From assembly GCA_038063735.1 (NCBI GenBank), contig JBBTUN010000005.1:953-64952 (forward strand): 64,000 bases of DNA, given 5' to 3'. A program made the position numbers and the translations under genes. This stretch comes from Patescibacteria group bacterium. Lineage in GTDB: Bacteria > Patescibacteriota > Microgenomatia > Curtissbacterales > GWA2-41-24. Below, one piece after another: positions 3,838 to 36,149 of the stretch (the first letter of the stretch is position 1; each line of letters opens with the position of its first letter). Under the pieces are notes generated by a model. That model was not told where the DNA came from. It searched no databases and saw only the letters and a program-made list of their open reading frames with translations.

Positions 3838-4779
3838 TTGAATAAAATGACAGATATATCAACAAAAATTGCAGGTGTAAAACTCGAAACTTGCGTTATC
3901 AATACCTCAGGGCCCGCTGACGAAACGCTAAAGCAGCTAGAAATTATCGCCAAATCGGCTTCCTCCGCAATCACAATGAAATCTTGCACACTTGAAGCGC
4001 GGGAAGGAAATCCGCAACCTCGGTATGCAAATCTTGAATTTGGCTCAATAAACTCAATGGGTTTGCCTAATTTGGGATATAAGGCTTATGTTGAATTTTC
4101 CAAAATTCTAAAGAAGAAATATAAAAAACCGATAGTTGCCAGTATATCCGGGATGAGCCTGGAAGACAATATAAAAATATTTAAAGCTTTTAACAATTCA
4201 CCAGTTGATATTATAGAATTTAATCCAGGTTCGCCAAACACAATTGGCAAACCAATTGTGGGTTATGACCCAAAAGAAACTGAAAGGTTACTAAAAGGTG
4301 TATCAAGAGTAGCAAAAAAACCTTTTGGGGTTAAGCTGCCCCCATATTTCGACTTAAACCAGTATGAAGAAATTGCCAAAGTCATTAAAAAATATCCCGT
4401 AAAATTCGTAACTTGCATAAACTCAGTTGGCAATGGTCTTGCAATAGATCCAAAAACGGAAAGACCACTTATCAAACCAAAAGGTGGCTTTGGTGGCATA
4501 GGCGGTAGATATATAAAGTTTGCAGCTCTTGCAAACGTCCGCAGGTTCTATGAAATTTTTGAAGATAAAATCCAAGTGATTGGAGTCGGAGGGGTTTATT
4601 CTGGAACAGATGCTTTCGAATTTATCCTTGCTGGTGCATCGGCAATTCAAATCGGGACAGCTTTTTTACAAAATGGATCTGGGATTTTTGCCAAAGTCCA
4701 AAAAGAGTTAAAATTAATAATGGACAAAAAGGGATATAAGAAAATCTCTGATTTCCGAGGGAAACTTAAACCTCTTTAA
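3838..4779 (+). CDS. pyrD: dihydroorotate dehydrogenase (class 1)
   Basis: 'TSGPAD', 'NLGY' and 'GVGGVYSGTDAFEFILAGASAIQIGTA' are typical of class 1 DHODH catalytic subunits. Confidence 0.85.
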   Translation: MNKMTDISTKIAGVKLETCVINTSGPADETLKQLEIIAKSASSAITMKSCTLEAREGNPQPRYANLEFGSINSMGLPNLGYKAYVEFSKILKKKYKKPIVASISGMSLEDNIKIFKAFNNSPVDIIEFNPGSPNTIGKPIVGYDPKETERLLKGVSRVAKKPFGVKLPPYFDLNQYEEIAKVIKKYPVKFVTCINSVGNGLAIDPKTERPLIKPKGGFGGIGGRYIKFAALANVRRFYEIFEDKIQVIGVGGVYSGTDAFEFILAGASAIQIGTAFLQNGSGIFAKVQKELKLIMDKKGYKKISDFRGKLKPL

Positions 4780-5306
4780 ATCTTCGTAATCTTTTCCGCG
4801 GGACAGATCCAGACTTGAATAGTCCTTTGGCGAATGGGATTTTTGCCTTTTCCATCCCTGCCGTCAAATTCAAACGCAGCAACCTGCTGATATTTACCAA
4901 GCTCCAGTTTTCCGGATAAAACAGGTACCACAACACTTGGGTGCGAGTAAGTCAATGTCCGAATATGGGCAGCCGCATTGTAATCTTCGTCAATCTCATT
5001 GCAGTACGGATTATCCTGACACCTGTGTCTGTAATCTGTTGTAGGGTGGGCATATTCTTTGGAAACTCGGGTAGATCTTCTGTCTTCCGGAATTGTATGG
5101 AGTGTGTGATGCAAAATATCCTTTAGAAGGTTTGGTTCTGCGATTTCGTTAACAACAATCCCCAACGTCGTATGTTTGGTATTCACGAAGACAAAACCTT
5201 CGCGCACTTTGGCCCTTATAATTGCGGCATTGATTTTATCCGTTATATCCAAAAAATACGTAGATTCTGTTGAAGGAAACTTTATTTCGTGTAAAAAAGC
5301 TCTCAT
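4776..5306 (-). CDS. YjbQ/UPF0047 family protein (secondary thiamine-phosphate synthase-like)
   Basis: 'FVFVNTKHTTLGIVVNEIAE', 'AAAHIRTLTYSHPSVVVPV', 'GKLELGKYQQVAAFEFDG' match the YjbQ fold pattern, with an extra insert. Confidence 0.6.
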   Translation of the reverse strand: MRAFLHEIKFPSTESTYFLDITDKINAAIIRAKVREGFVFVNTKHTTLGIVVNEIAEPNLLKDILHHTLHTIPEDRRSTRVSKEYAHPTTDYRHRCQDNPYCNEIDEDYNAAAHIRTLTYSHPSVVVPVLSGKLELGKYQQVAAFEFDGRDGKGKNPIRQRTIQVWICPAEKITKI

Positions 5307-5393
5307 TAAAACTTAACAACAATTCTAACATGTCTCGCAAGTTTAAACTGCAGTTGATATTAAGGTATAATTCAACCTAAATCGGGAGCATTC

Positions 5394-9368: not shown

Positions 9369-12300
9369 ATGGCCAACTTCACTCATCTTCATGTTCATAC
9401 GGAATTTTCTCTTCTAGACGGTTTATCAAAAATAAAAAAACTGGTAACACAAGCCAAAATAATGGGCATGAAAAGCATAGCAATGACAGACCACGGCGCA
9501 ATGTATGGAGCGATAAAATTCTACAACGAGTGCCAAGCAGAAGGCCTAAACCCAATAATAGGCTGTGAAATGTACATAGCCAAAAGATCTTTATCCGATA
9601 AAGAAGCAGGCAAGGACAACGAATACTCTCATTTAACAGTATTATCATGTGACGAAGAGGGCTACAGAAATTTAATGAAGTTGGTAACCATCTCCCACTT
9701 AGAGGGATTCTATTACCGGCCTAGGGTAGATAAAGAATTACTTGCAAAGTATTCCAAAGGTTTAATAGCTTTATCCGGTTGTAATTCTTCCGAAATTTCA
9801 AAAAGTTTTGTGCAAGGCAATTTACAGGAAGCAAAAAAACTGGCCAAAGTTTATACCGAAATATTTGGTCAAAGCAATTTTTATCTTGAAGTCCAAAGAC
9901 ATGAATTTGAAAAGTTTGCAACTGCCCACGAACCAGGCAGTGAAATTTATAACGAATTAACAAGAATGCACAGTGAAGAAATCAAAATAATAAGCGGCGC
10001 GAAAAAATTATCAAAAGATACTGGCCTAAAACTAATCGCAACGAACGATATTCACTATGTTAAGCAACAAGACGCAAATGCCCAAGACGCTATAGTTTGT
10101 ATTCAAACCGGTAAAAACATTTCCGACATTAAAAGGTTGAGAATGATAGACTCCCCTACTTTTTACCTCAAAAGCACGAGCGAAATGGAAGCACTTTTTG
10201 CAGATATGCCAGAAGCCCTGACAAATACCCAAGAGATCGCTAGTCGGGTGAATATCAATCTAAATTTAGGCAAGGTTGCCTTTCCGAATTTTGAAGTACC
10301 TGCAAATACAAATCCCGACGAGTATTTAAAAAAACTATGTTACGAAAGAATCAAAAGTAGGGTTAGTTTAGTTACCGTCGAGATGAAAAAAAGACTGGAC
10401 TACGAACTTTCTGTTATATCCAAAAAAGGCTACTCCACATATTTTTTGGTTGTTGCGGATTTCGTTAACTGGTCACGCGAAAAAGGAATAATCTCCACAA
10501 CCCGTGGCTCTGCTTCCGGAAGCCTTGTGTCTTTTGCGCTTGGCATAACCACAGTTAATCCGCTTTTTTTTAAATTACCATTCGAACGTTTCTTAAATTT
10601 ATACAGGCCAAGCCTGCCCGATATAGATGTAGATTTTGAAGACATAAGAAGGGATGAGGTCATCGCTTATGTGAGGGGAAAGTATGGTCACGACAAAGTA
10701 GCACAAATCGGTACTTTTGGCACAATGATGGCACGTGCCGCAGTTCGTGATGTAGCCCGGGTTCTTGGCTTGCCTTATTCAAAGGCAGATAGAATTGCCA
10801 AAATGATTCCAATCGGAGCGCAGGGTTTTCCAATGTCCATTGACACCGCCAAAAAACAAAATAAAGAATTAGGTTATCTCTACAATCAAGACTCAGAAGT
10901 AAAAGAACTTTTGGATCTCTCGGAAAAGGTGGAAGGCAATGCCAGACACGTTTCGGTGCATGCGGCCGGTGTAGTTATTGGCCCGTCGGAACTCACAAAA
11001 TTTACTCCGCTTCAAAAGGAAACAACCGGAGAAAAAATAATAACTCAATACGACATGCACGATGTTGAAGAAGCAGGTCTTGTGAAAATGGATTTTCTTG
11101 GTATTAGGAATTTATCCATTTTAGGTCAAGCAGTAAAAATAGTCGGCAAAACCAAGAAAATAGAAATTGATCTTTCCAAAATAGCACTAGACGATAAAAA
11201 ATCTTTCGAAATTCTTGCCAAAGGTGAAACCATGGGCCTGTTCCAACTTGGCGGAACCGGTATGACACGCTACTTAAAAGAACTACGCCCGTCATCAATT
11301 TTTGACATTATGGCAATGATCTCTTTGTTTAGGCCGGGGCCGATGAATTCTATCCCGGAGTTTATCGAAAGAAAACATAACTCAAAAAAAATCATTTATT
11401 TTGACCCGCGCATGAAAGATTATCTTGATCAGTCTTACGGTGTAATTGTTTACCAGGACGACGTTTTATTAACCGCCATAAATATTGCCGGATATAACTG
11501 GGAGGAAGCAGACAACTTTAGGAAAGCCATGGGTAAAAAAATTCCTGCAGAAATGGCTAAACAAAAAGAAAAGTTTATAGATGGAGCGATCAAAAACGGT
11601 ATGACTCCTAAAAAAGCCGACGAACTATTTAAGTTAATAGAGCCGTTCGCTGCCTACGGATTTAATAAAGCGCATGCTGCAAGCTACGCTATCATCGCTT
11701 ACGAAACTGCTTATATGAAAGCTAATTACCCGGTAGAATTTATGACTGCAGTCATGACGGCAGAAGCTGACGACCCTGACAAAATAGCTATGGCGGTTGA
11801 TGAGTGCGGGAAAATGGGTATTTTAGTTTTGCCACCAAACATTAACAAATCCGACACGGGTTTTAATATTGAGGCGATAACAGACGATGAATTTAAGGCC
11901 GAAGTTAAAAGAGGCATTATTTACCGCGACACAATACGTTTTGGCCTGTCTGCCATAAAAAATGTTGGCCGTGCTGCAATCGAGGCAATAATCACCGAAA
12001 GGGATGCAAAAGGTGAATTCACATCACTAGATAATTTCGCCAAAAGGATAAATCTGCGCGCCGTTAATAGAAAAACCATGGAAAGTTTAATAAAAGCGGG
12101 TGCCATGGATAAATTTGGAAACCGAAATGCCATGCTAAAAGTTTTAGACGAACTTAAATCAACCGGCACTTCACTGACTAAGGCAATCAGCGAAGGCCAG
12201 GGTTTATTATTCGATACGGCCGAACTTGCAGAAGCGTCAGTTCCTTCTTCTATTGATCACATGCTGCAAACAACCCAAGAGGCGCCAAGAGAAGAAATAT

Positions 12301-12914: not shown

Positions 12915-12957
12915 ATAATTTACAAAAAACCCGAAATTCGCTATACTTACAATTCGT

Positions 12958-13858: not shown

Positions 13859-14208
13859 ACAAAACTGCGCTTGGTAAGTACGGAGAAGACTTAGCCGGCG
13901 CTTATCTTACAAAGCTCGGCTACAAAATAATCGAACGTAATTTCCGAATTAGGGGCGGAGAAATAGACATTATAGCCACAGATGTCAACACGCTTGTGTA
14001 CGTTGAAGTTAAAACGAGGTCAACTCACCAGTTCGGGCTCCCGGAGGAATCGGTTAACTATTACAAACTAAAATTTATGGAACGTGCTTCAAAATTTTAC
14101 AGGCTGCAAAGGAAAAACCTTCCAGAGCTGGAAAGAATTGATGTAGTATCAGTCGACCTTTCAGGCAGTGAAGCAAAAATCAAGCTTATCAAAAACGCCT
14201 CACTTTGA
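13855..14208 (+). CDS. YraN family (UPF0102) endonuclease-like protein
   Basis: 'GKYGEDLAGAYLTKLGYKIIERNFRIRGGEIDIIA'. Conserved rplS-rnhB-yraN neighbourhood. Confidence 0.8.
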   Translation: MNKTALGKYGEDLAGAYLTKLGYKIIERNFRIRGGEIDIIATDVNTLVYVEVKTRSTHQFGLPEESVNYYKLKFMERASKFYRLQRKNLPELERIDVVSVDLSGSEAKIKLIKNASL

Positions 14209-28164: not shown

Positions 28165-28602
28165 TTAGTTATTTACAGGTTTAGAAAGTTTCTTGTGCAA
28201 GAAGAGGCTGCCATTTGTTAATGTCATTAGTTGGTTTGGAAATTTTATAAGATCCAGTTCTATCCACGAGTTAAGCTTGTTGTGTTTTTTGAGGGCATTT
28301 TTCTCAGAATCAAAAAGCTCCGATTCAAGCCAAAAAAAGTCTTTACTAAAGTCTATCGCTTCCGTTTTATCCAAATTAAAAGTAGTCGGTTTAACCTTTT
28401 TCATTAAATTTATTGTGTCCTCAGTTAGAAATTGGGAAAGATAATTAACTGTTTCTTCACTATTTCCCTTGCACCTGGTGCTAAGCCACGACACGGAGAA
28501 CTTAGACAAAATGTATTTTAAAAACTCGTCTAAGTGAAGAGCAGGCACGACTCCTTTCGTTATGATTACTCCGTCAATTCCTATGTACATATTGCGCTTC
28601 AT
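28165..28602 (-). CDS. hypothetical protein
   Basis: ORF only. N-terminal 'MYIGIDGVI' is weakly HAD-like. Confidence 0.4.
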   Translation of the reverse strand: MKRNMYIGIDGVIITKGVVPALHLDEFLKYILSKFSVSWLSTRCKGNSEETVNYLSQFLTEDTINLMKKVKPTTFNLDKTEAIDFSKDFFWLESELFDSEKNALKKHNKLNSWIELDLIKFPNQLMTLTNGSLFLHKKLSKPVNN

Positions 28603-28716
28603 AAATTTTATGTGCTAACCAAAAGTCGTATCAGTGAAAAGAGATACTTTAATCTTACTTATCGGGCCATAAGTATAGCACAGCAAGCATTACAGCCAAA
28701 TTCACATTTAAATAGT

Positions 28717-28859
28717 TGTCTGCCCACGATTCTGCCCTTCAAATATCTCAGGATAAACGCTGTTTACCCTGAGCAATGGTGAGTGAAATCGAACCAGAGT
28801 CGAAGGAGAATCAAGTATTTACCTAACTCAAATCATTATACTCAGCTTTAGCTATCTCG
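28717..28859. repeat. cassette-boundary repeat X1 (long form)
   Basis: Shares 'TGTNTGCCCACGATT...GCC', '...CCTGAGCAATGGTGAGTGAAATCGAACCAGAGTCGAAGGAGAAYCAAGTATT' with X2 and the 5' and 3' blocks with X3/X4 ('CAAATCATTATACTCAGC'). Confidence 0.7.
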
Positions 28860-29880
28860 TTTTAATGGCGACAACACAACCAACTATACCTGGGTCTGTT
28901 CTCGTCCTTTGTGCTTCAAAGGCACTACCTTCATACAAATTAGGCATATCGGAATTAATTTCAACGTTGAAATTCTGAAGTAAACCATTAATGCGCTCCA
29001 GCGCCCTCACTCGTTTTGTGTACTCTTGAAGGGAATTTCCTGTTCCCACAGTTATCAGCAAACAACCGTTTGGTTTTAATTTTCCCAAAAACGTTTTCAA
29101 AAGCTTATCAACTTTTCTGTCTTGCTCTCTTCTCTCTTTCCTTTTTACTACTGCGTTTGGGCCTTGAGGATAAATTATTTCTGGATCCATTCTGTTCCAA
29201 AAAATAGTCTGCAAATCGCCCGGGATCAATTCTTTTGTTAGAGCCTCTCCCAGGGATGTGCCAATAAAGAATACTTTATCCTCAGGAACTCCAAAATTTT
29301 TATTAGCTTCATCAAACGCGGAAAGATTTCTTAAGTTTGGCTCAACAGCCACTGCTTGACCACCTACAACAGCGGGTTTTTTATCAAGCCCTGCAAAGGT
29401 ATTAGCAATGGCAACAAAAGCTGCATCTGCTCTGCTAAGAATAGCTACTATGGACTCCTTGCTGGGTGCCTCAATGTAACAGGCAAGGACCTCCGGAGTA
29501 GTTTTTCCTGATCCTATAAAAGCTTTGTCTCCACCTCTTGGGCTGCCAGTAGCAAGCTCAACAGTTCTTACAAATAAGTAAAAGTTAGCAAAATGCGGAA
29601 AGGATGCAGCAATTAGAGGATATTCAACTTCGATGGCAGAGATTTCCAGCTCTGAACGTTTTTTCGCTTCTGCAGCACTTAATTTTTCTCGTTCAAATAA
29701 GTAGTCATATTGGTGAGGGTTTTTTACGAGAGCTCGGTTTATTGAAGCCAGTCTGTGTATACTCTCTGCTGATACTGCTGCCCGAACATTATCTACATTA
29801 GTATTATCAACGCCTAAAAAACTCTCGTGAGGTACAAATAACCCATGCGATGAAAGCTCGCTCCGTTTCCTGTCAGACAT
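28852..29880 (-). CDS. hypothetical cassette protein with P-loop-like 'AFIGSGKTT' motif
   Basis: 342-aa ORF flanked by repeats X1 and X2. The Walker-A-like motif is the only recognisable feature. Confidence 0.5.
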   Translation of the reverse strand: MSDRKRSELSSHGLFVPHESFLGVDNTNVDNVRAAVSAESIHRLASINRALVKNPHQYDYLFEREKLSAAEAKKRSELEISAIEVEYPLIAASFPHFANFYLFVRTVELATGSPRGGDKAFIGSGKTTPEVLACYIEAPSKESIVAILSRADAAFVAIANTFAGLDKKPAVVGGQAVAVEPNLRNLSAFDEANKNFGVPEDKVFFIGTSLGEALTKELIPGDLQTIFWNRMDPEIIYPQGPNAVVKRKERREQDRKVDKLLKTFLGKLKPNGCLLITVGTGNSLQEYTKRVRALERINGLLQNFNVEINSDMPNLYEGSAFEAQRTRTDPGIVGCVVAIKTR

Positions 29881-29920
29881 AAGCGCAGATTATACAACAA
29901 GTCTCCGGAAAGATTAATGT

Positions 29921-30056
29921 GGCCCCACCATTTTCGCCCTCCTCCACTCTTCGAGCTTCGGATGGTTAAACAGTGTTTATCCTGAGCGATGGTGAGTGAA
30001 ATCGAACCAGAGTCGAAGGAGAACCAAGTATTCTCCGAACGAATTTAATATTCAGG
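29921..30056. repeat. cassette-boundary repeat X2 (long form)
   Basis: About 60 nt nearly identical to X1 (4 mismatches in 'TGTTTAYCCTGAGCRATGGTGAGTGAAATCGAACCAGAGTCGAAGGAGAAYCAAGTATT'), plus the shared 5' 'CCCACSATTTTCGCCC' block. Confidence 0.7.
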
Positions 30057-30063
30057 TTCCTCA

Positions 30064-30357
30064 TTGTCTACAGTGATTGGAACAATTCTTGAAAAGTTGA
30101 TGTATAATATTCGTATGAAAACATATATAACATCTAGTCCTGAAATAATGTCGGGTGCACCTGTTATTGTCGGCACTCGTGTCCCTGTCGCCCGAATTGT
30201 TTATCTTTTGAAGGATGGTTTTACGATGGAGCAAATAAGCAAACAATTTCCGCATGTCGGTCTAAAAAGATTGCGGGGTGCCGTGAATGACTTGGCTAAA
30301 AAAGTAGAAACTATTCCTTATGGTACGCAAATTTCACAAACACAAGCTACTGCTTGA
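30064..30357 (+). CDS. DUF433 domain protein (antitoxin-like)
   Basis: 'ITSSPEIMSGAPVIVGTRVPVARIVYLLKDGFTMEQISKQFP' matches the DUF433 pattern. The true start is probably the internal 'MKTYITSS'. Confidence 0.7.
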   Translation: MSTVIGTILEKLMYNIRMKTYITSSPEIMSGAPVIVGTRVPVARIVYLLKDGFTMEQISKQFPHVGLKRLRGAVNDLAKKVETIPYGTQISQTQATA

Positions 30358-30682
30358 TGAAGGGTTCCCTGTCCGTTCTTATTGCCCTATTTTGAATAGA
30401 CGCTTTGATGTTAAGCATATTACCCAAGATTTTAAACAAGTAAGTTTATCAGACAAACAAGTACACGAATTTGCGGCAGAACACAACAGGATTGTCGTGA
30501 CATTAAATATTAAAGACTTTAAACCGCTTTCCCCAACAAACAAAAATACGGGAATAATCGGTGTTTCAGCAGGATTACAGTTTAAACAAGTTGATAGAAA
30601 ACTTACTGCGCTTTTGAATAAATCTACTAAAAAACAGCTGTTGGGCAAACTTACCATTATAAGTGGCGAATCACAAAAGTAA
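30320..30682 (+). CDS. DUF5615 (PIN-like / Mut7-C-like) domain protein (toxin-like)
   Basis: 'KLLLDEGFP...HITQD...NRIVVTLNIKDF' matches the DUF5615 pattern. Overlaps the DUF433 gene, the usual two-gene arrangement. Confidence 0.7.
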   Translation: MVRKFHKHKLLLDEGFPVRSYCPILNRRFDVKHITQDFKQVSLSDKQVHEFAAEHNRIVVTLNIKDFKPLSPTNKNTGIIGVSAGLQFKQVDRKLTALLNKSTKKQLLGKLTIISGESQK

Positions 30683-30776
30683 GTTTCGACAAGCTTAACC
30701 TTCATATTTTAGGAAAGACATTAAACCCTAATTGGGTTACGTCACGCACGATAAGTGGTACTTCGACAACGACCTC

Positions 30777-30898
30777 TGTGACCCCACGATTTTCGCAATG
30801 GAACCAGGCATTTGTCGAACTGAAGTCGTTGTATTCAGCTTTGAGCCAGCCTCAAGAGCCGAACTTAAGCTATCTCCAATTGGGAAGTTGAACTACGG
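30777..30898. repeat. cassette-boundary repeat X3 (short form)
   Basis: 'TGTGACCCCACGATTTTCGCAATGGAAC...CTATCTCCAATTGGGAAGTTGAACTACGG' is collinear with X4. The 3' end overlaps the HDAC-like stop codon. Confidence 0.7.
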
Positions 30899-31837
30899 TA
30901 GCCCAGAAAAGAAGCTCTCAGCTAATTTTCCAATACTCTTTGTATCATATCCTCCTTCTTGAACAAATAAAGTAGGGAGGTTTAATGCTGCAATTTTATT
31001 GGCCATTTTTTTATAGAATGGTCTTGTGAGTGAAAATTTACAAATAGGGTCACCAATGTAGGTGTCAAAGCCCAAAGATACTACTAAGTACTCAGGGCTG
31101 AAATTACTTACTTTTTCCAGAGCTTTTATCAAAGTTTGTTGGTATTTTCTCTCTCCAGTATTTAGTGGAAGCGGGAAATTAAAATTGTATCTCTTTCCAT
31201 CGCCTTCACCTTTCTCTCTAGAGTAGCCAGATTTATGAGGAAAAGCAGCTCTTGGTTCTGCATGGATAGAAACAAACAAAATATCTGATCTTTTATAAAA
31301 CATTTCTTGGGTACCGTTGCCGTGATGATAATCGACGTCTAAAACAGCCACCCTGCCCCTTTTCGATAAGTAGTTTGCCGCAATCGCAGCATTGTTGAAA
31401 AAACAATATCCTCCCATCATCGATTTTCTTGCATGATGTCCTGGGGGGCGACAAAGGCTATAAACAAACATTTCTCCCAGTACTAATCTTTTTGCTCCCG
31501 ACAGCGCAACATTCACCGAAGATTTAGCAGCATCGAATGCCCCATGGGTAATGGGTGTATAAGAATCAAAAGAATAACTGTTTAGAAAAAACTCATCATG
31601 TGTTTTTATTGAACTCGACTTAAGGAAATTCAAGTAACGTTTCGTGTGAAGAGATAGTATCCAAGATTCTCTAAAGCTCCATGCTTTGGCAATCATAACG
31701 CCTTGATTTCTCAATTGTCGCAAAATATTTTCAACTCTATCGGGAACTTCTGGGTTATTTATCAACTCACCATTGAATAATTCCTTTTTCGGTGAATGTT
31801 TTTTGTGTAGCGGAGAATAAACAACTCTAATGCTCAT
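30893..31837 (-). CDS. histone deacetylase / acetoin utilisation (AcuC) family amidohydrolase
   Basis: 'CRPPGHHA', 'VLDVDYHHGNGTQ', 'VSLGFD', 'QEGGYD' (HDAC/arginase-deacetylase fold). Confidence 0.85.
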   Translation of the reverse strand: MSIRVVYSPLHKKHSPKKELFNGELINNPEVPDRVENILRQLRNQGVMIAKAWSFRESWILSLHTKRYLNFLKSSSIKTHDEFFLNSYSFDSYTPITHGAFDAAKSSVNVALSGAKRLVLGEMFVYSLCRPPGHHARKSMMGGYCFFNNAAIAANYLSKRGRVAVLDVDYHHGNGTQEMFYKRSDILFVSIHAEPRAAFPHKSGYSREKGEGDGKRYNFNFPLPLNTGERKYQQTLIKALEKVSNFSPEYLVVSLGFDTYIGDPICKFSLTRPFYKKMANKIAALNLPTLFVQEGGYDTKSIGKLAESFFSGLP

Positions 31838-32835
31838 CTTAGTACCTCCTTCGTGTCTGGTCTTGAGTAGTATTTTTCAATATTTTCAGGAGGTAGGTGC
31901 ATAAAGGTGAAGTCCCTGAGGCCTTTGGGATCAATGCCGTCATTTACTTCAACGTTTTGACAAAGTATTTGCGGAAAGCTATTCTGGTCGTACCTTCTTT
32001 CTGGGACAACAAAGCCTGCTCCATTTGCCGCTCTATCTGAGCGTGACATAAAATTACACTCGGCAAAAATCAGGAATTCTTTTCCTCGTAAATCCCTGAT
32101 GACCTGCGAATTTAGGTGAGCTATGGTTGCAGTTATAAATCCTTGATTTTCATAGCCCTCCAGAGTCTTCCATTCTGTATTTTCAATTAAGTCGACATAC
32201 CCACTACTTGTTCTTAATCTCAATTTTTCTGCCATAGCAGCAGCTACTATCACTCCATCTTTTGTCGCTGAGCTAAACCAAAGCGACCTTCCAATACCAC
32301 GTTCTATATCGCCGTTTAGTCTTCTCCTTAAAGCAGTGATTTCTTCGCCAGACCATCCAAATGTTCGTGACCACAGATTAAGTAGTTGAGCTTCTTGCTC
32401 AGCTGTAAAGGTTGAATTGAAACTGACACCCAAATCCTCAAGCAACCTAACTCTTTCGAATGCACGTCTTGGCTTGTTAACGTAACTGCTAGTTTCTTTC
32501 ACCATTTGAGCTACAGGCACGATAGGTTTTCGACTAACACCATTGTGGGCAGCTAAAATTATCCAGTCATTACCAAATGGCACTATAACTTCAATTTCAG
32601 AAGCAACCTCGGCTGGCATTTTTTGAAAGACATCGTTTGTGACCAGTGATCTAAAAACGACTCGAGAAATCCCGGCTAGTGAGCCTAAATTTCTCAAACG
32701 TCCATAAGCTCGCGACAAAATATCAGGGTTATCTATTGGTGCGCCTTTCCAGTTCCAATAAAGCCTGTCAAAGCCTCTCCGTTTTAAACCAGCCTCTCCT
32801 GTGCTTGAAAAAATTTGTTCTTGTTCTTTTGTCAT
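31834..32835 (-). CDS. hypothetical protein co-transcribed with the HDAC-like gene (weak GNAT-like 'RGIGRSL' motif)
   Basis: Its stop overlaps the downstream HDAC-like gene's start codon by 4 nt (ATGA). No firm family. 'DIERGIGRSLWF' is reminiscent of the acyl-CoA-binding motif A of GNAT acetyltransferases. Confidence 0.5.
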   Translation of the reverse strand: MTKEQEQIFSSTGEAGLKRRGFDRLYWNWKGAPIDNPDILSRAYGRLRNLGSLAGISRVVFRSLVTNDVFQKMPAEVASEIEVIVPFGNDWIILAAHNGVSRKPIVPVAQMVKETSSYVNKPRRAFERVRLLEDLGVSFNSTFTAEQEAQLLNLWSRTFGWSGEEITALRRRLNGDIERGIGRSLWFSSATKDGVIVAAAMAEKLRLRTSSGYVDLIENTEWKTLEGYENQGFITATIAHLNSQVIRDLRGKEFLIFAECNFMSRSDRAANGAGFVVPERRYDQNSFPQILCQNVEVNDGIDPKGLRDFTFMHLPPENIEKYYSRPDTKEVLR

Positions 32836-32842
32836 TTTTTAC

Positions 32843-32880
32843 CACTAAAAAACCCCTCATGTGAGGGGCTATCCTTTTTG
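32843..32880 (-). terminator. hairpin CCCCTC-atgt-GAGGGG followed by a T-run on both strands (intrinsic-terminator-like), 10 nt upstream of the 32835 start codon
   Basis: 6-bp GC stem with a 4-nt loop at 32853-32868. The minus strand has TTTTTT immediately 3' and the plus strand has TTTTT 5 nt 3'. Confidence 0.5.
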
Positions 32881-33096
32881 TGAAATTTAGTCTAAAACTA
32901 GTCCACAACCAAGACGCCCCTGTTGGGGTTTTTCTTGGTTTTGTTTTTAGAAACTAAATAAATAGCCATTTAATGTTTGAATAGTAACAAATACTAATGA
33001 ACATAGTCAAATCTTTTGAGGCTAAAGTCTATTAAACCAAAGAGCTACTCGAACATTTTAGCTTCAAAAAATGTTAAATGGTTTTTAATTTGAGGC

Positions 33097-33219
33097 TGTG
33101 TGCCCACGATTTTCGCAATGGAACTTGGTATTCTCTGAACCCAAATCATTATACTCAAGCCTAAACGTGCCTACCAAAAAATGAACTTGGCTACCTCCCA
33201 CTGGGAAGTTGAACTATAG
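33097..33219. repeat. cassette-boundary repeat X4 (short form)
   Basis: 'TGTGTGCCCACGATTTTCGCAATGGAACTTGGTATTCTCTGAACCCAAATCATTATACTCAAGC...TCCCACTGGGAAGTTGAACTATAG'. Internal direct repeat 'AATGGAACTTGGTATTCTC' / 'AATGAACTTGGCTACCTC'. Confidence 0.7.
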
Positions 33220-33226
33220 TTTTAAT

Positions 33227-33481
33227 TTACCTTGAAAGAGAAAAGACCCAAGGCTTTAATTTATCCTTAGTTTCTTCTACCTCAATTACCTTTTTACCTG
33301 ATTTCAAAAGTGATTTGATCAAGTTCTGATTTTCTTCATTAAGTTCCTCATCATCAGCTGAAAATACCACATAAGAAGTATCTTTTTTTAAGTTCTTTAC
33401 CTCATCTGGATTTTTTTGCAGATAGTCTGCTAACCTGGCAGAAAGATTAATATTTTTTTGTATTTGTGTATTCTTACTCAT
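33227..33481 (-). CDS. small acidic hypothetical protein (antitoxin-like partner)
   Basis: 84-aa ORF located 70 nt 3' of the next gene and abutting X4. Confidence 0.4.
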   Translation of the reverse strand: MSKNTQIQKNINLSARLADYLQKNPDEVKNLKKDTSYVVFSADDEELNEENQNLIKSLLKSGKKVIEVEETKDKLKPWVFSLSR

Positions 33482-33551
33482 TTGACTTCAGGGGAGGAAT
33501 TATACAACATTTTAAATAGTAAACTATGAGTAATAAAATTATAATAACACA

Positions 33552-34034
33552 TTATTTTCTCTTTTTGTTACTTTTCTTGAGGCTATTTAAATAGCCATTT
33601 TTATAATTTAAATACCTATTACTAATATCTTTCACGGCCCAAGTTAACCAATCATTAGAACCACCTTTTTTGATTACACCCACTGTGTTAGTAATTGGTT
33701 CACCGGATCTGAGTCTACTGTGACGGTGAAGAAAACCATGTTCACTATCATATCTACAAAGAGTTTTCCACTTACCTTTGATTAATGTTTCGTACGAGAC
33801 ATTAATAACTTCGCTTACTTCGTTATTGACATCTAGCTGATAAATATATGTAACTCTGTCTGTTCTATCAGAGCTCAACATAAATTGTTGACCTTTCTGG
33901 CTCTTAGGTAATTTAGACAGATCAGGGGTTGCGAGTTCTAGATTTTTCTGTCGTTTAACTAAATGTTTTACAGTCTCTTGCTTTGAAAGTACGACAAACG
34001 ATTTTCTCGGATTCCGATGTGTTCTTCTCCCCAC
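33552..34034 (-). CDS. basic hypothetical protein with C/H cluster 'CRYDSEHGFLHRH'
   Basis: 160-aa ORF 52 nt from tRNA-Glu. No family recognised. Confidence 0.45.
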   Translation of the reverse strand: MGRRTHRNPRKSFVVLSKQETVKHLVKRQKNLELATPDLSKLPKSQKGQQFMLSSDRTDRVTYIYQLDVNNEVSEVINVSYETLIKGKWKTLCRYDSEHGFLHRHSRLRSGEPITNTVGVIKKGGSNDWLTWAVKDISNRYLNYKNGYLNSLKKSNKKRK

Positions 34035-34085
34035 AATATTTAAGATTATAAAGTATTTTACGTGGTATAAACAAAATAAGTTCTG

Positions 34086-34157
34086 TGGCCCTACGGGGAG
34101 TCGAACCCCGCTTTGGACCTTGAAAGGGTCCCGTCCTAACCGATAGACGATAGGGCC
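34086..34157 (-). tRNA. tRNA-Glu (anticodon UUC)
   Basis: Minus-strand sequence GGCCCTA-T-CGTC...GACG-G-GGACC-CTTTCAA-GGTCC-AAAG-CGGGG-TTCGACT-CCCCG-TAGGGCC-A folds as a cloverleaf with a 7-bp acceptor stem. CCA is not encoded. Confidence 0.85.
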
Positions 34158-34288
34158 TCACTACGTTCAGCCCTGATTCTCGCTTTGCTCAAAATAGGGC
34201 CAAAACATCAAAACAAAGCTAGGAAATTTTACCACAAAACGCACTCCAACGTTTACCACCGATCTATCAGGACCACCCATCTACCCGA

Positions 34289-34969
34289 CTACTTCTTAAA
34301 CTTTTCCCAAGCCATTTCTAAAATGTTTTTAGCCGTACTTTGGCCACCGAGTCCAAAGGCAAGGCCACCCGCAACCGCAAACATAGCAACAACTCCCGCA
34401 AACAGAATTCTCAAAAGCTCCGGCGCAACACCAAGCTGATGAAGAACCAAAAATGCAACAAAAATCATAATAGACCATTGTGCAATCAAACCAACCGTGT
34501 GCGAAAGGTTTTTACCCATATTCTGGCTTGCTCCATGAGCCAAGCGATAACCCAGTTTTGCCATCATCAGGCCGACCATTGCCAAAATTACGGCTACAAT
34601 TACGTTTGGTATATAAAGGATTACGCGGTTTAAGACTGTATTTACAGCATCCAGCTTCCAAACCTGCAACGTTGGAACCAAAAAGACAAGGATTACAGCC
34701 CACCTTGCAAGTTCTGCAAGAATCTCGCTCCACTCAACGTCGTGCCCTTCAAATTCCACAATACCGTAACGCGCCAGGAGCTTTTCCAGTTGAATTACTT
34801 TTAAAATACCAAAAATTACGCGATAAACAACTGCAGCAACAATTAAACTAACGAGCAAAATAATTAAACCCCCGACCAAATTTGGAATAAAAGTAATAAA
34901 AGATGCTAGAGAACTTATAACAGCAGTAGAAACTGCTGTCGATAATTCTTCGACTATCAAATTAATCAC
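34289..34969 (-). CDS. membrane protein with conserved TM helix repeats (MscS-N-terminal-like)
   Basis: Repeated 'LxxLxIxxxxG' helices and a fully hydrophobic profile. Confidence 0.5.
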   Translation of the reverse strand: MINLIVEELSTAVSTAVISSLASFITFIPNLVGGLIILLVSLIVAAVVYRVIFGILKVIQLEKLLARYGIVEFEGHDVEWSEILAELARWAVILVFLVPTLQVWKLDAVNTVLNRVILYIPNVIVAVILAMVGLMMAKLGYRLAHGASQNMGKNLSHTVGLIAQWSIMIFVAFLVLHQLGVAPELLRILFAGVVAMFAVAGGLAFGLGGQSTAKNILEMAWEKFKK

Positions 34970-35169: not shown

Positions 35170-35192
35170 AAGGTACAAATTACTTTCCCTCT

Positions 35193-36149
35193 ATGAATTG
35201 GGTCGATTTAATAATAATTCTTGCAATTGGGGTTTTTGCAGCCGATGGTATTAAGCGTGGGTTTTTGATACAAGCCTTTAACATTGTTGGGTTTTTGTTT
35301 TCGCTGCTTTTTGCTCTGGCCCTGTATGCGCAACTGGCAAGCGTGCTGTTAAAGATATTTAATATTCCAGAAATAGCGGCAAACCCTATCAGTTTTTTAA
35401 TCATCTGGATTGTCGCCGAAAGCGCATTTTTTGGGGTTTTAACCGGCATTTATGCTAAGTTTATTGCCCGCTATCACCACATAAAAATAAACAAGTACTT
35501 GGGTATTTTGCCATCCATCGCCAACGCCCTTTTATTTTTGGCGTTTGTCCTGCTCCTTGTGGTCTCTCTGCCAATTCGCCCAGGCATTAAGCAGGATATA
35601 TTTAATTCAAAGTTCGGCGCCGAACTTGTAAACAAGGCAACTTTACTGGAAAAACCTTTTAATGACATATTTGGGCCGATCACCAAGCAGACTTTAACCT
35701 TTTTAACAGTTAAGCCGGAAGACAAGGGCTCGGTAGATTTAAAATTTACCCAAAAAACCGTAAGTGTAGATTATGACGCCGAAAAGCAAATGTTTGCTCT
35801 TGTAAACGAAGAGAGAATGAAAGCTGGCGCCAGGCCGCTCGTTTTGCGGGATAATCTGGCGGAAGTTGCAAGGGCGCACTCGCGGGATATGTTTGCCCGG
35901 GGTTACTTTTCCCATTTTTCGCCGGAAAGTAAAGATATTGGTGACAGGCTCGGGGCAGCAGACATATCCTACACATATGCCGGTGAGAATTTAGCGCTGG
36001 CGCCAAGCGTACAAAGGGCGCACACAGGCCTGGTGAACAGCGAAGGCCACAAAAGAAATATCCTGGACCCCGCTTTCACAAAAATTGGCATAGGCGGCAT
36101 AGACGGTGGAATTTACGGCAAAATGTTTACACAAATATTCACGGAGTAA
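35193..36149 (+). CDS. CvpA-family membrane domain fused to CAP/SCP (PR-1-like, YkwD-type) extracellular domain
   Basis: N-terminal CvpA-like 4-TM region. C-terminal 'HSRDMFARGYFSH...GENLA...GHKRNILDPAFTKIGIG' CAP motifs. Confidence 0.7.
   Translation: MNWVDLIIILAIGVFAADGIKRGFLIQAFNIVGFLFSLLFALALYAQLASVLLKIFNIPEIAANPISFLIIWIVAESAFFGVLTGIYAKFIARYHHIKINKYLGILPSIANALLFLAFVLLLVVSLPIRPGIKQDIFNSKFGAELVNKATLLEKPFNDIFGPITKQTLTFLTVKPEDKGSVDLKFTQKTVSVDYDAEKQMFALVNEERMKAGARPLVLRDNLAEVARAHSRDMFARGYFSHFSPESKDIGDRLGAADISYTYAGENLALAPSVQRAHTGLVNSEGHKRNILDPAFTKIGIGGIDGGIYGKMFTQIFTE

Follow-up and report, generated by a model that had tools for sequence, protein, structure and literature searches.

Between a tRNA-Glu gene and a gene encoding a protein of 145 amino acids (aa), the 64-kb stretch of patescibacterial DNA analysed in this study (hereafter the window) carries seven genes grouped into four small cassettes, of one or two genes each and in either orientation, every one of which is followed by a copy of a repeat of approximately 120–140 nucleotides (nt) that we call X. 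The rest of the 64 kb is devoted to housekeeping (pyrimidine synthesis, GatAB, DnaE, glycolysis, UvrABC and LexA). Contigs identical to the window DNA come from Hainich groundwater, and close homologues of its proteins carry the source name 'Candidatus Curtissbacteria'. A preliminary description had read the locus as an integron-like cassette array with X as its attC site, and had offered a different, tRNA-proximal mechanism of cassette capture as the alternative; the comparative evidence presented below supports the latter.

Read on the minus strand, the region begins at the tRNA-Glu (UUC) gene (34085..34157, minus; ARAGORN, and 58 bits in Rfam), its fixed left edge, where the array had indeed been placed at first. 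Directly upstream lies the gene of an MscS-like membrane protein (34289..34969, minus; Pfam), a conserved proximal flank that served as synteny anchor. The 3′ end of the tRNA gene, ...CCCCGTAGGGCCA followed by CA (to 34084, minus), is the proposed attachment point and would be attB- or attI-like. Cassette 1 (33097..34084, minus; delimited by Pfam, composition and boundaries) contains a DUF7718 gene (160 aa; 33552–34034, minus) and a DUF5647 gene (33227–33481, minus), both identified with Pfam, and then the short-form att-like repeat X4 (33097..33216, minus; profile E-value 3e-34), which ends in CGTGGGCACACA. The G+C content of this cassette (0.33) is the lowest in the window, and the DUF7718/DUF5647 pair lies in the most AT-rich kilobase of the 64 kb. 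Cassette 2 (30777..33096, minus; Pfam) opens with a start module of approximately 60 nt (33040–33096, minus), a possible P′ arm homologous to the starts of cassettes in the related contigs L026 and L031. This is followed by a leader with a terminator-like hairpin, conserved in other Patescibacteria (32836–32970, minus), a gene for a 333-aa protein with no Pfam match (31834–32835, minus), an HDAC-like gene (30893–31837, minus; Pfam) and the short-form att-like repeat X3 (30777..30895, minus; profile E 3e-29; end CGTGGGGTCACA), in which the −10 element has degenerated to TACAAC.

Cassette 3 (29918..30776, minus; Pfam and sequence) holds a putative toxin–antitoxin pair that is inverted, as had been recognized from the outset, with a DUF433 gene (30064–30357) and a DUF5615 gene (30320–30682) on the plus strand, both assigned by Pfam. 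It closes with the 5′-truncated X2, an extra-long variant (29918..30042, minus, with weaker similarity to approximately 30057; profile E 2e-3; end GGTGGGGCCACA). Cassette 4 (28717..29917, minus; open reading frame (ORF) reading and strain comparison) consists of a 342-aa gene (28852–29880, minus), whose ATG follows a TATAAT of its own by 10 nt, and X1 (28717..28858, minus; profile E 1e-8; end CGTGGGCAGACA), an extra-long variant and the last, tRNA-distal copy. The P-loop motif initially attributed to the 342-aa protein found no database support. The 145-aa gene (28165..28602, minus; no Pfam match) is the conserved flank on the distal side, where the variable region has its right edge; the N-terminus of its product looks, by eye, HAD-phosphatase-like. 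Beyond it lies a convergent M24 peptidase gene.

The four repeats occupy essentially the positions first given for them, all on the minus strand and in one orientation, and a profile built from eight full copies in five contigs found no fifth significant copy in the 64 kb (next match E 1.7). They are not the uniform family first envisaged. X1 and X2 form one pair (88% identity over 77 nt; blastn E 2e-23) and X3 and X4 another (72% over 122 nt; blastn E 4e-12), the two being linked by shared collinear blocks B (TGAGTATAATGATTTGAGTTC..AATAC..GGTTC) and C (GCGAAAATCGTGGGGCCACA). A 5′ block A is present in X3 and X4, whereas X1 retains only its last 8 nt; X1 and X2 both lack most of block A and carry extra insertions, and X2 is also without the promoter part. 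X4 reads block A (GTTCAAC, a CCC/GGG hairpin and GAGGTAG), a promoter-like TTGGTA-18-TATAAT, and blocks B and C. Overall, three forms of X can be distinguished: short, long (with an additional CCCTTTCAA..TTCAGGGTAAACA segment) and extra-long. An exact TATAAT occurs at the same alignment position in six of the eight full copies, five of these with a TTGnnA-type −35, and four direct GTTY motifs stand at conserved positions; these motifs and the AT-rich stretch around TATAAT may serve as arm-type binding sites or, alternatively, as a genuine promoter directed outward. The repeat abuts a stop codon in three of four cases, as originally described: X1 runs over the stop codon of the 342-aa ORF, X3 starts with the TAG that ends the HDAC-like ORF and X4 begins 11 nt past the DUF5647 stop codon, while X2 adjoins the start of the inverted DUF433/DUF5615 pair.

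Several other identities for X were considered and rejected. Peptides shared between copies when X is translated (e.g. PTIFAME) are interrupted by stop codons and by a 1-nt indel between copies, and X has no similarity to the promoter region of the tRNA itself. A possible fifth copy near 55.9 kb, beside a small ORF encoding a coiled coil, was not significant (E 8.4), and a relationship between that ORF and a cassette ORF of contig L027 was not demonstrable (E 0.08). Some copies contain tRNA-like elements, namely CCCTTTCAA (anticodon loop) and GGTTCGA-like bits; however, a tRNA model run at E up to 10 and ARAGORN gave no match on any X. Rfam searches of the window and sister loci, at gathering thresholds and at E up to 10, matched real tRNAs only.

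The resemblance that does hold lies at the very end of the repeat. Every X ends in a variant of CGTGGGGCCACA, and the tRNA-Glu gene, aligned on the 3′ end, finishes with CGTAGGGCCACA. The boundary alignment drew on ten X copies, three tRNA-Glu genes and one partial tRNA copy, and in all 13 boundary sequences the similarity between copies stops directly after CACA. Individual boundary copies match the tRNA end at 8–11 of 12 positions, counted from the alignment; by our arithmetic, 11 of 12 matches at one fixed register would arise by chance with a probability of approximately 2e-6. The tRNA-Glu gene is identical in the window and in contigs L026, L027 and L031, unrelated flanking sequence starting right after ...GGGCCACA, and in all four the array begins flush with the 3′ end of an intact tRNA gene. 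Two sister arrays also contain pieces of the tRNA proper. In L031, a perfect 27-nt duplicate of the tRNA-Glu T-arm and acceptor end lies 35 nt past the gene, and L016 carries a 39-nt partial copy at 87% identity. The variant bases of the latter (1900–1938, minus; GTTCG[T/A]TTCCCCGTGGAGCCACA) are those of the tRNA-Glu of lineage L032 (11546–11613), which suggests that this fragment came from another host. The argument for mimicry of the tRNA end rests on this exact positional coincidence together with the unambiguous tRNA fragments in sister arrays. On the far side of the boundary, a homologous module of approximately 60 nt follows CACA in three cassettes (after X4 in the window, after the tRNA in L026 and after the duplicate in L031), so that the conserved site may extend to both sides of the core and include a second att arm.

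The repeat is confined to this locus. A degenerate 20-mer for block C, scanned against metagenome contigs, returned 16 stretches, of which a profile search confirmed three (L016, L026 and L027), and a fourth contig (L031, 261 kb) was reached by a synteny look-up through the MscS-like protein. In L026, L027 and L031 the same tRNA-Glu is followed by different genes separated by X in tRNA orientation; the tRNA gene is missing from contig L016, which has a cassette in common with L026 and the partial tRNA-Glu inside. Wherever a copy of X can be placed, it thus lies on the downstream side of this tRNA-Glu, oriented like the others and between different genes, and the copies are not ordinary dispersed repeats, the outcome that would have told against the cassette array as first described. 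No significant copy was found outside the tRNA-Glu hotspot in the 64 kb or in approximately 150 kb of related loci, nor was any found in the X-less relatives examined. A 19-mer scan of species-representative genomes gave two chance matches only, scans of viral collections (with DNA motifs, the tRNA 3′ half and three cassette proteins) nothing real, and a BLAST search of X against phages and plasmids no match.

Cassette-wise variation between siblings is clear, both between strains and between lineages, with breakpoints at the X 3′ end. The 342-aa cassette is 99% identical at the nucleotide level in the window and in the close strain contig L027, but is preceded by the extra-long X2 in the former and by the short copy L027a in the latter. 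The two sequences match from GCGAAAATGG rightwards (99%) and are unalignable leftwards, and the last 20 nt of X2 and its flank are identical to L027a. Conversely, X2 and the copy L016b share 97% identity over 101 nt but lead, after CACA, into different cassettes, the 342-aa cassette following X2 only. A third case is the NYN nuclease cassette, which stands behind copy L016a in one contig and behind L026a in another. These three comparisons indicate that X travels with the tRNA-proximal (upstream) cassette, and the exchange points appear to lie at or within the last ~20 nt of X.

The variable stretch is closed on its far side by homologues of the 145-aa protein (61–63% identity in tblastn) in L031, L032, L033 and L041, so that in five lineages the hotspot has tRNA-Glu at one edge and the 145-aa gene at the other. 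Its content ranges from a nearly empty state in L033, where a reversed bipA is the only gene between the two edges, through three genes in L041 and five in L032, all three without X, to about eight genes with at least five copies or fragments of X in L031 and seven genes with four copies in the window. The locus thus varies across Curtissbacteria, X marking how one sublineage fills it.

Some further features of these contigs were noted. Three Logan contigs of the same strain, from independent assemblies (L002, L003 and L004), end in X2 at 29989–29994, within a 33-nt stretch identical to X1, and many contigs with MscS homologues are merely 1–2 kb long, assemblies breaking systematically at the locus; the short assemblies and the breaks in X2 fit a repeat-rich, polymorphic locus. 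Past the NYN cassette, L026 contains degenerate X-like fragments at 5072–5391 and 4660–4960 (AGTTCGACAAGACGCCTGG; CTCTCACCATTGC), after which an ORF with transposase-type helix-turn-helix (HTH) domains (HTH_28/HTH_29) is cut by the contig end. Content downstream of tRNA-Lys differs too, the window having CvpA/CAP (35171–36149) where L026 (1–1728) has a LOG-like gene and a DUF4258/MqsA-like pair. In L010, the closest M24 relative, M24, CvpA/CAP and tRNA-Lys are arranged differently, and the tRNA-Lys site may be a second variable site or reflect an inversion. Synteny followed through the M24 peptidase gene was poorly informative, the neighbourhood being rearranged in relatives.

We consider it probable that the locus is a tRNA-anchored array of integrase-less mini-cassettes that bear att-type sites and are moved by an unlinked recombinase. 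The stretch from tRNA-Glu to the 145-aa gene would be a site-specific integration hotspot, each cassette being self-contained, usually with its own promoter, and carrying an att-type site, X, at its tRNA-distal end. X itself would comprise an arm of approximately 110 nt (blocks A and B, the GTTY motifs and TTGnnA-18-TATAAT) and the core CGTGGGGCCACA mimicking the tRNA end CGTAGGGCCACA. The core of a circular cassette would recombine either with the tRNA 3′ end or with the corresponding core of an X already in place, so that the cassette lands right after ...CACA, older cassettes are pushed outward and the tRNA is left intact. Cassettes would be lost or exchanged when this reaction runs backwards or when X copies recombine with one another. 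Because no cassette encodes a recombinase, the enzyme would have to act in trans, supplied from elsewhere in the genome or by a helper element. What the sequences show directly is the anatomy, the mimicry of the tRNA end at the exact boundary, the restriction to this locus, the exchange of cassettes between strains with breakpoints at the X 3′ end and the partial tRNA-Glu copies of sister arrays; the circular intermediate, a crossover within the last ~20 nt, the type of recombinase and any present activity of the array are inferred.

A number of observations weigh against this interpretation. In agreement with the first description, Pfam gave no recombinase or transposase domain for the window ORFs of at least 110 aa judged to be genes or for the cassette ORFs, and no recombinase was found in any of the approximately 20 cassettes or, in L031, within 10 kb of the arrays. 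The identity with the tRNA is short (8–12 nt), imperfect and too short for BLAST significance in the window. Unanchored local alignments of the tRNA against X were mostly no better than shuffles, and for this reason, together with the negative tRNA-model and ARAGORN searches, our claim is limited to the terminal 12 nt. X is unusually long and conserved for a mere att scar and contains a well-conserved promoter-like element, making a regulatory role possible. The crossover, traced with single-base markers only, cannot be placed with better resolution than the final ~20 nt of X, and X-less relatives vary at the hotspot as well. Excision products, empty-site reads and circular junctions were not seen in the DNA analysed, and the replacement pattern could be explained by homologous recombination in conserved flanks. 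A further step, which we advance tentatively, would make the locus a working capture platform parallel to the integron, but built from different parts: the tRNA-Glu 3′ end would be the fixed acceptor, and the cassette site would be double-stranded and approximately 120–190 bp long, made up of X and a short arm on the far side of the core. A single unlinked recombinase, which might belong to an unrecognized family, would serve many self-expressed, integrase-less cassettes of one or two genes.

Homologous recombination is also part of the alternative that survives best, which we nevertheless regard as rather unlikely. X would here be a lineage-specific intergenic regulatory module, a terminator-like hairpin with an outward promoter, copied from one transcription unit to another. 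Incoming DNA would be swapped in by ordinary homologous recombination, for which the X copies and the conserved flanks (MscS/tRNA-Glu on one side, the 145-aa gene on the other) supply the homology; no site-specific recombinase would take part, and the resemblance to the tRNA would be coincidental. The constant position of the exact TATAAT and its −35 in most full copies agrees with such a module, as do the short CCC/GGG hairpin after upstream stop codons, the failure to find a recombinase in the window ORFs searched, the variation in X-less relatives and the short assemblies that break at the locus. A module of this kind would not, however, be expected to be limited to one locus in constant orientation relative to a tRNA, nor to have a right edge that agrees, to the exact nucleotide, with a copied tRNA terminus, and true partial tRNA-Glu copies are present in sister arrays. 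In addition, X stands beside reverse-oriented genes, where an outward promoter is useless, and the cassettes have promoters of their own, as read from their sequences.

More improbable still is a fossil array, in which classical integrase-bearing islands inserted successively at tRNA-Glu, lost their integrases and most of their cargo by deletion and left immobile X scars behind. Truncated or fragmentary repeats do exist, X2 among them, along with L031 copies that have only block C, only block A, or B and C. The L031 tRNA 3′ duplicate has almost nothing between it and the gene, the same array recurs in four assemblies, and decay into cis-mobilizable elements (CIMEs) is a standard route (PMC5704250). 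Yet no integrase fragment was found in any of the approximately 20 cassettes, which are uniformly tiny (0.5–2.3 kb) and intact. The ~110-nt arm is kept across contigs whose MscS genes share only approximately 67% nucleotide identity, which points to selection on X, and the near-identical cassettes and X copies (99% and 97%) in different array contexts, from wells of one aquifer, argue for recent exchange.

It is very unlikely that the X copies are single ends of DDE transposons (Tn7-like/CRISPR-associated transposon (CAST) or Mu-like) homing to the tRNA. On the reverse strand, X starts TGTGG... and shows repeated GAAC motifs like transposase-binding sites; the TGTG/CACA terminus and the four regularly placed GTTY motifs would suit a transposon end, as would the HTH transposase-like ORF at the end of L026. 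But profile searches of both strands gave one orientation only and thus no inverted partner, no tns-like or transposase genes were found in the arrays apart from that HTH-only ORF, and insertion is flush with the tRNA terminus, sharing bases with it, rather than at a fixed downstream offset.

The interpretation proposed at first, a true integron cassette array without integrase (a cluster of attC sites lacking integron-integrases, CALIN) with X as attC, is hardly credible. Integron attC sites are R''-L''...L'-R' imperfect inverted repeats that fold into a bottom-strand hairpin with extrahelical bases; their junction core, GTTRRRY, is complementary to the RYYYAAC at the other end of the site, and a CALIN is by definition a cassette array without IntI. 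The arguments in its favour were the repeats of 120–140 nt at cassette 3′ ends in one orientation and the inverted toxin–antitoxin cassette, to which can be added the 5′ ends of several copies, GTTCAAC or GTTTAAC, that fit RYYYAAC. No complementary GTTRRRY core exists at the 3′ end, though, where all junctions read ...GGGGCCACA, and the ends of X are not inverted repeats, no imperfect-palindrome architecture being found. The attC bottom-strand hairpin was likewise not recovered, X folding no better than shuffles on either strand: RNA folds of X1–X4 gave z from −1.9 to +0.5 and single-strand DNA folds of four copies on both strands z from −1.05 to +0.43, with no end-to-end stem. The consensus structure of eight copies reached only −3.18 kcal/mol with a covariation term of −0.11, and Rfam searches of the region yielded nothing beyond the real tRNAs. 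Since palindromes are lacking, the junction is tRNA-like, cassette genes point both ways, most with a promoter of their own, and there is no IntI, the integron reading fails. Dispersed intergenic repeats of the REP/MITE kind and a structured non-coding RNA or tRNA-like element are dismissed by the confinement of significant copies to the hotspot within the 64 kb and the approximately 150 kb of related loci, and by the lack of Rfam and ARAGORN matches with a weak consensus fold, respectively.

The cargo is varied. Sister arrays add an NYN nuclease, a PsbP-like secreted protein and unknowns to the genes of the window, and the NYN nuclease of L026 was the only match of defence-system models to the cargo. 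A PDB sequence search for the 342-, 333- and 160-aa proteins was uninformative. Most cassette genes have a TATAAT 6–13 nt upstream of the ATG, a distance at which the cassette mRNAs would be leaderless or nearly so. Exact TATAAT sites were located at 29881–29905 in the window and at 12247–12268, 12930–12946, 14125–14147 and 15308–15325 in L031, and no obvious ribosome-binding site accompanies the genes that have them. In both L026 (3866–3936) and L016 (1–70, minus), the reverse NYN gene has a strong TTGACA-17-TATACT/TACAAT promoter directed into its 3′ end, which could drive an antisense or small RNA.

The 333-aa/HDAC-like operon is the only part of the array found without the repeats, and then in distant genomes only, where it lies among housekeeping genes (tRNA-synthetase and GreA genes) of other Patescibacteria; gene sets occurring without X, which would speak against mobile cassettes, are thus limited to this one case. 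Its leader of approximately 130 nt is kept there too, and for this reason we consider that a complete transcription unit moved into the array. The hairpin terminator reported between the first two cassettes is real (32851–32870) but belongs to this leader, which is conserved in four distant Patescibacteria (window 32836–32970, minus; L011, 3690–3800; L012, 9880–10000; L014, 9850–10000). A first hairpin, AACCAAGAAAAA-CCCC-AACA-GGGG-CGTCTTGGTT, covaries in its inner stem (CCCC/GGGG to CCTCT/AGAGG) and is followed by an invariant terminator-like GCCCCT-N6-AGGGGTTTTTTAGTGG directly upstream of the ATG, with alternative pairing possible between the two. The leader is a candidate for an undescribed riboswitch or attenuator; in Rfam it gave a weak PreQ1 match only (E 5). 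The 333-aa protein, which has no match in Pfam or among PDB sequences, is always in an operon with an HDAC-family enzyme (window 30893–32835; L011–L014). Its family is small, with 16 clusters, and the three named sources are Patescibacteria or Saccharibacteria.

Candidate-phyla-radiation bacteria have tiny genomes, and their acquisition of accessory genes is poorly understood. Here, a defined and bounded site is available at which single genes or small operons, each with a sequence tag, are swapped between close strains; toxin–antitoxin pairs, nucleases and an operon for a polyamine-type deacetylase, complete with leader, are among the cargo. Should the tag be a recombination site on which an enzyme acts in trans, the locus would represent a minimal integron-like form of gene capture anchored on a tRNA, and its recombinase should be findable through genes that co-occur with X. 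The repeat would also offer a convenient marker for strain-level gene flow in groundwater communities. Even with X as no more than a fossil scar or a spacer of regulatory function, this would still be a clean tRNA-anchored hypervariable region in a reduced genome.

Compared with described systems, the array appears to combine the logic of integrons, of CIMEs and of tandem accretion. With integrons and CALINs it has in common ordered, co-oriented small cassettes at one chromosomal position, each ending in a site of ~60–140 nt, inverted toxin–antitoxin cassettes and the precedent of integrase-less arrays; it differs in having no folded single-strand hairpin and no R''/R' core sites, a tRNA 3′ end in place of attI, and cassettes with their own promoters in either orientation, IntI being absent from the window ORFs. 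CIMEs are att-flanked elements without integration genes of their own that are mobilized by the integrase of another element, and are viewed as decayed integrative and conjugative elements (ICEs) or integrative and mobilizable elements (IMEs) beside a functional element, as in the ICESt1/ICESt3 family (PMC5704250). Tandem stacking at the 3′ end of a target gene and units with no integration genes of their own are shared with them, whereas no functional partner is seen here and the cassettes are minimal and many in a row. The tycheposons of Prochlorococcus are tandem elements separated by partial tRNA copies of ~40 nt and carry tyrosine or serine recombinases and replication modules (bioRxiv 10.1101/2020.12.28.424599). 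Like the array, they bring cargo into a streamlined genome, integrate at tRNAs and seed hypervariable islands; in the array, by contrast, no recombinase or replication genes were found, and its long att arm does not derive from the tRNA.

The closest described case appears, by analogy, to be the ssrA islands of Dehalococcoides, in which a 20-bp copy of the ssrA end, together with an adjacent conserved motif, delimits each of the tandem units. These islands extend over many kb, 16 with a serine-recombinase module and 15 units without an integration module (PMC3146451; McMurdie et al., 2011). As in the array, a reduced-genome lineage carries tandem units downstream of a single tRNA-like gene, each unit bounded by a sequence that repeats, or in the array resembles, the 3′ end of that gene next to a conserved motif, with one base consistently differing between gene and repeats; the content also varies between strains and some units have no integration module. 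In the array, however, the tRNA match is 8–12 nt, the conserved site 120–190 nt and the unit 0.5–2.3 kb. What sets it apart is the combination of tiny units, the absence of a recombinase from all of the approximately 20 units, a long conserved arm and a very short identity with the tRNA.

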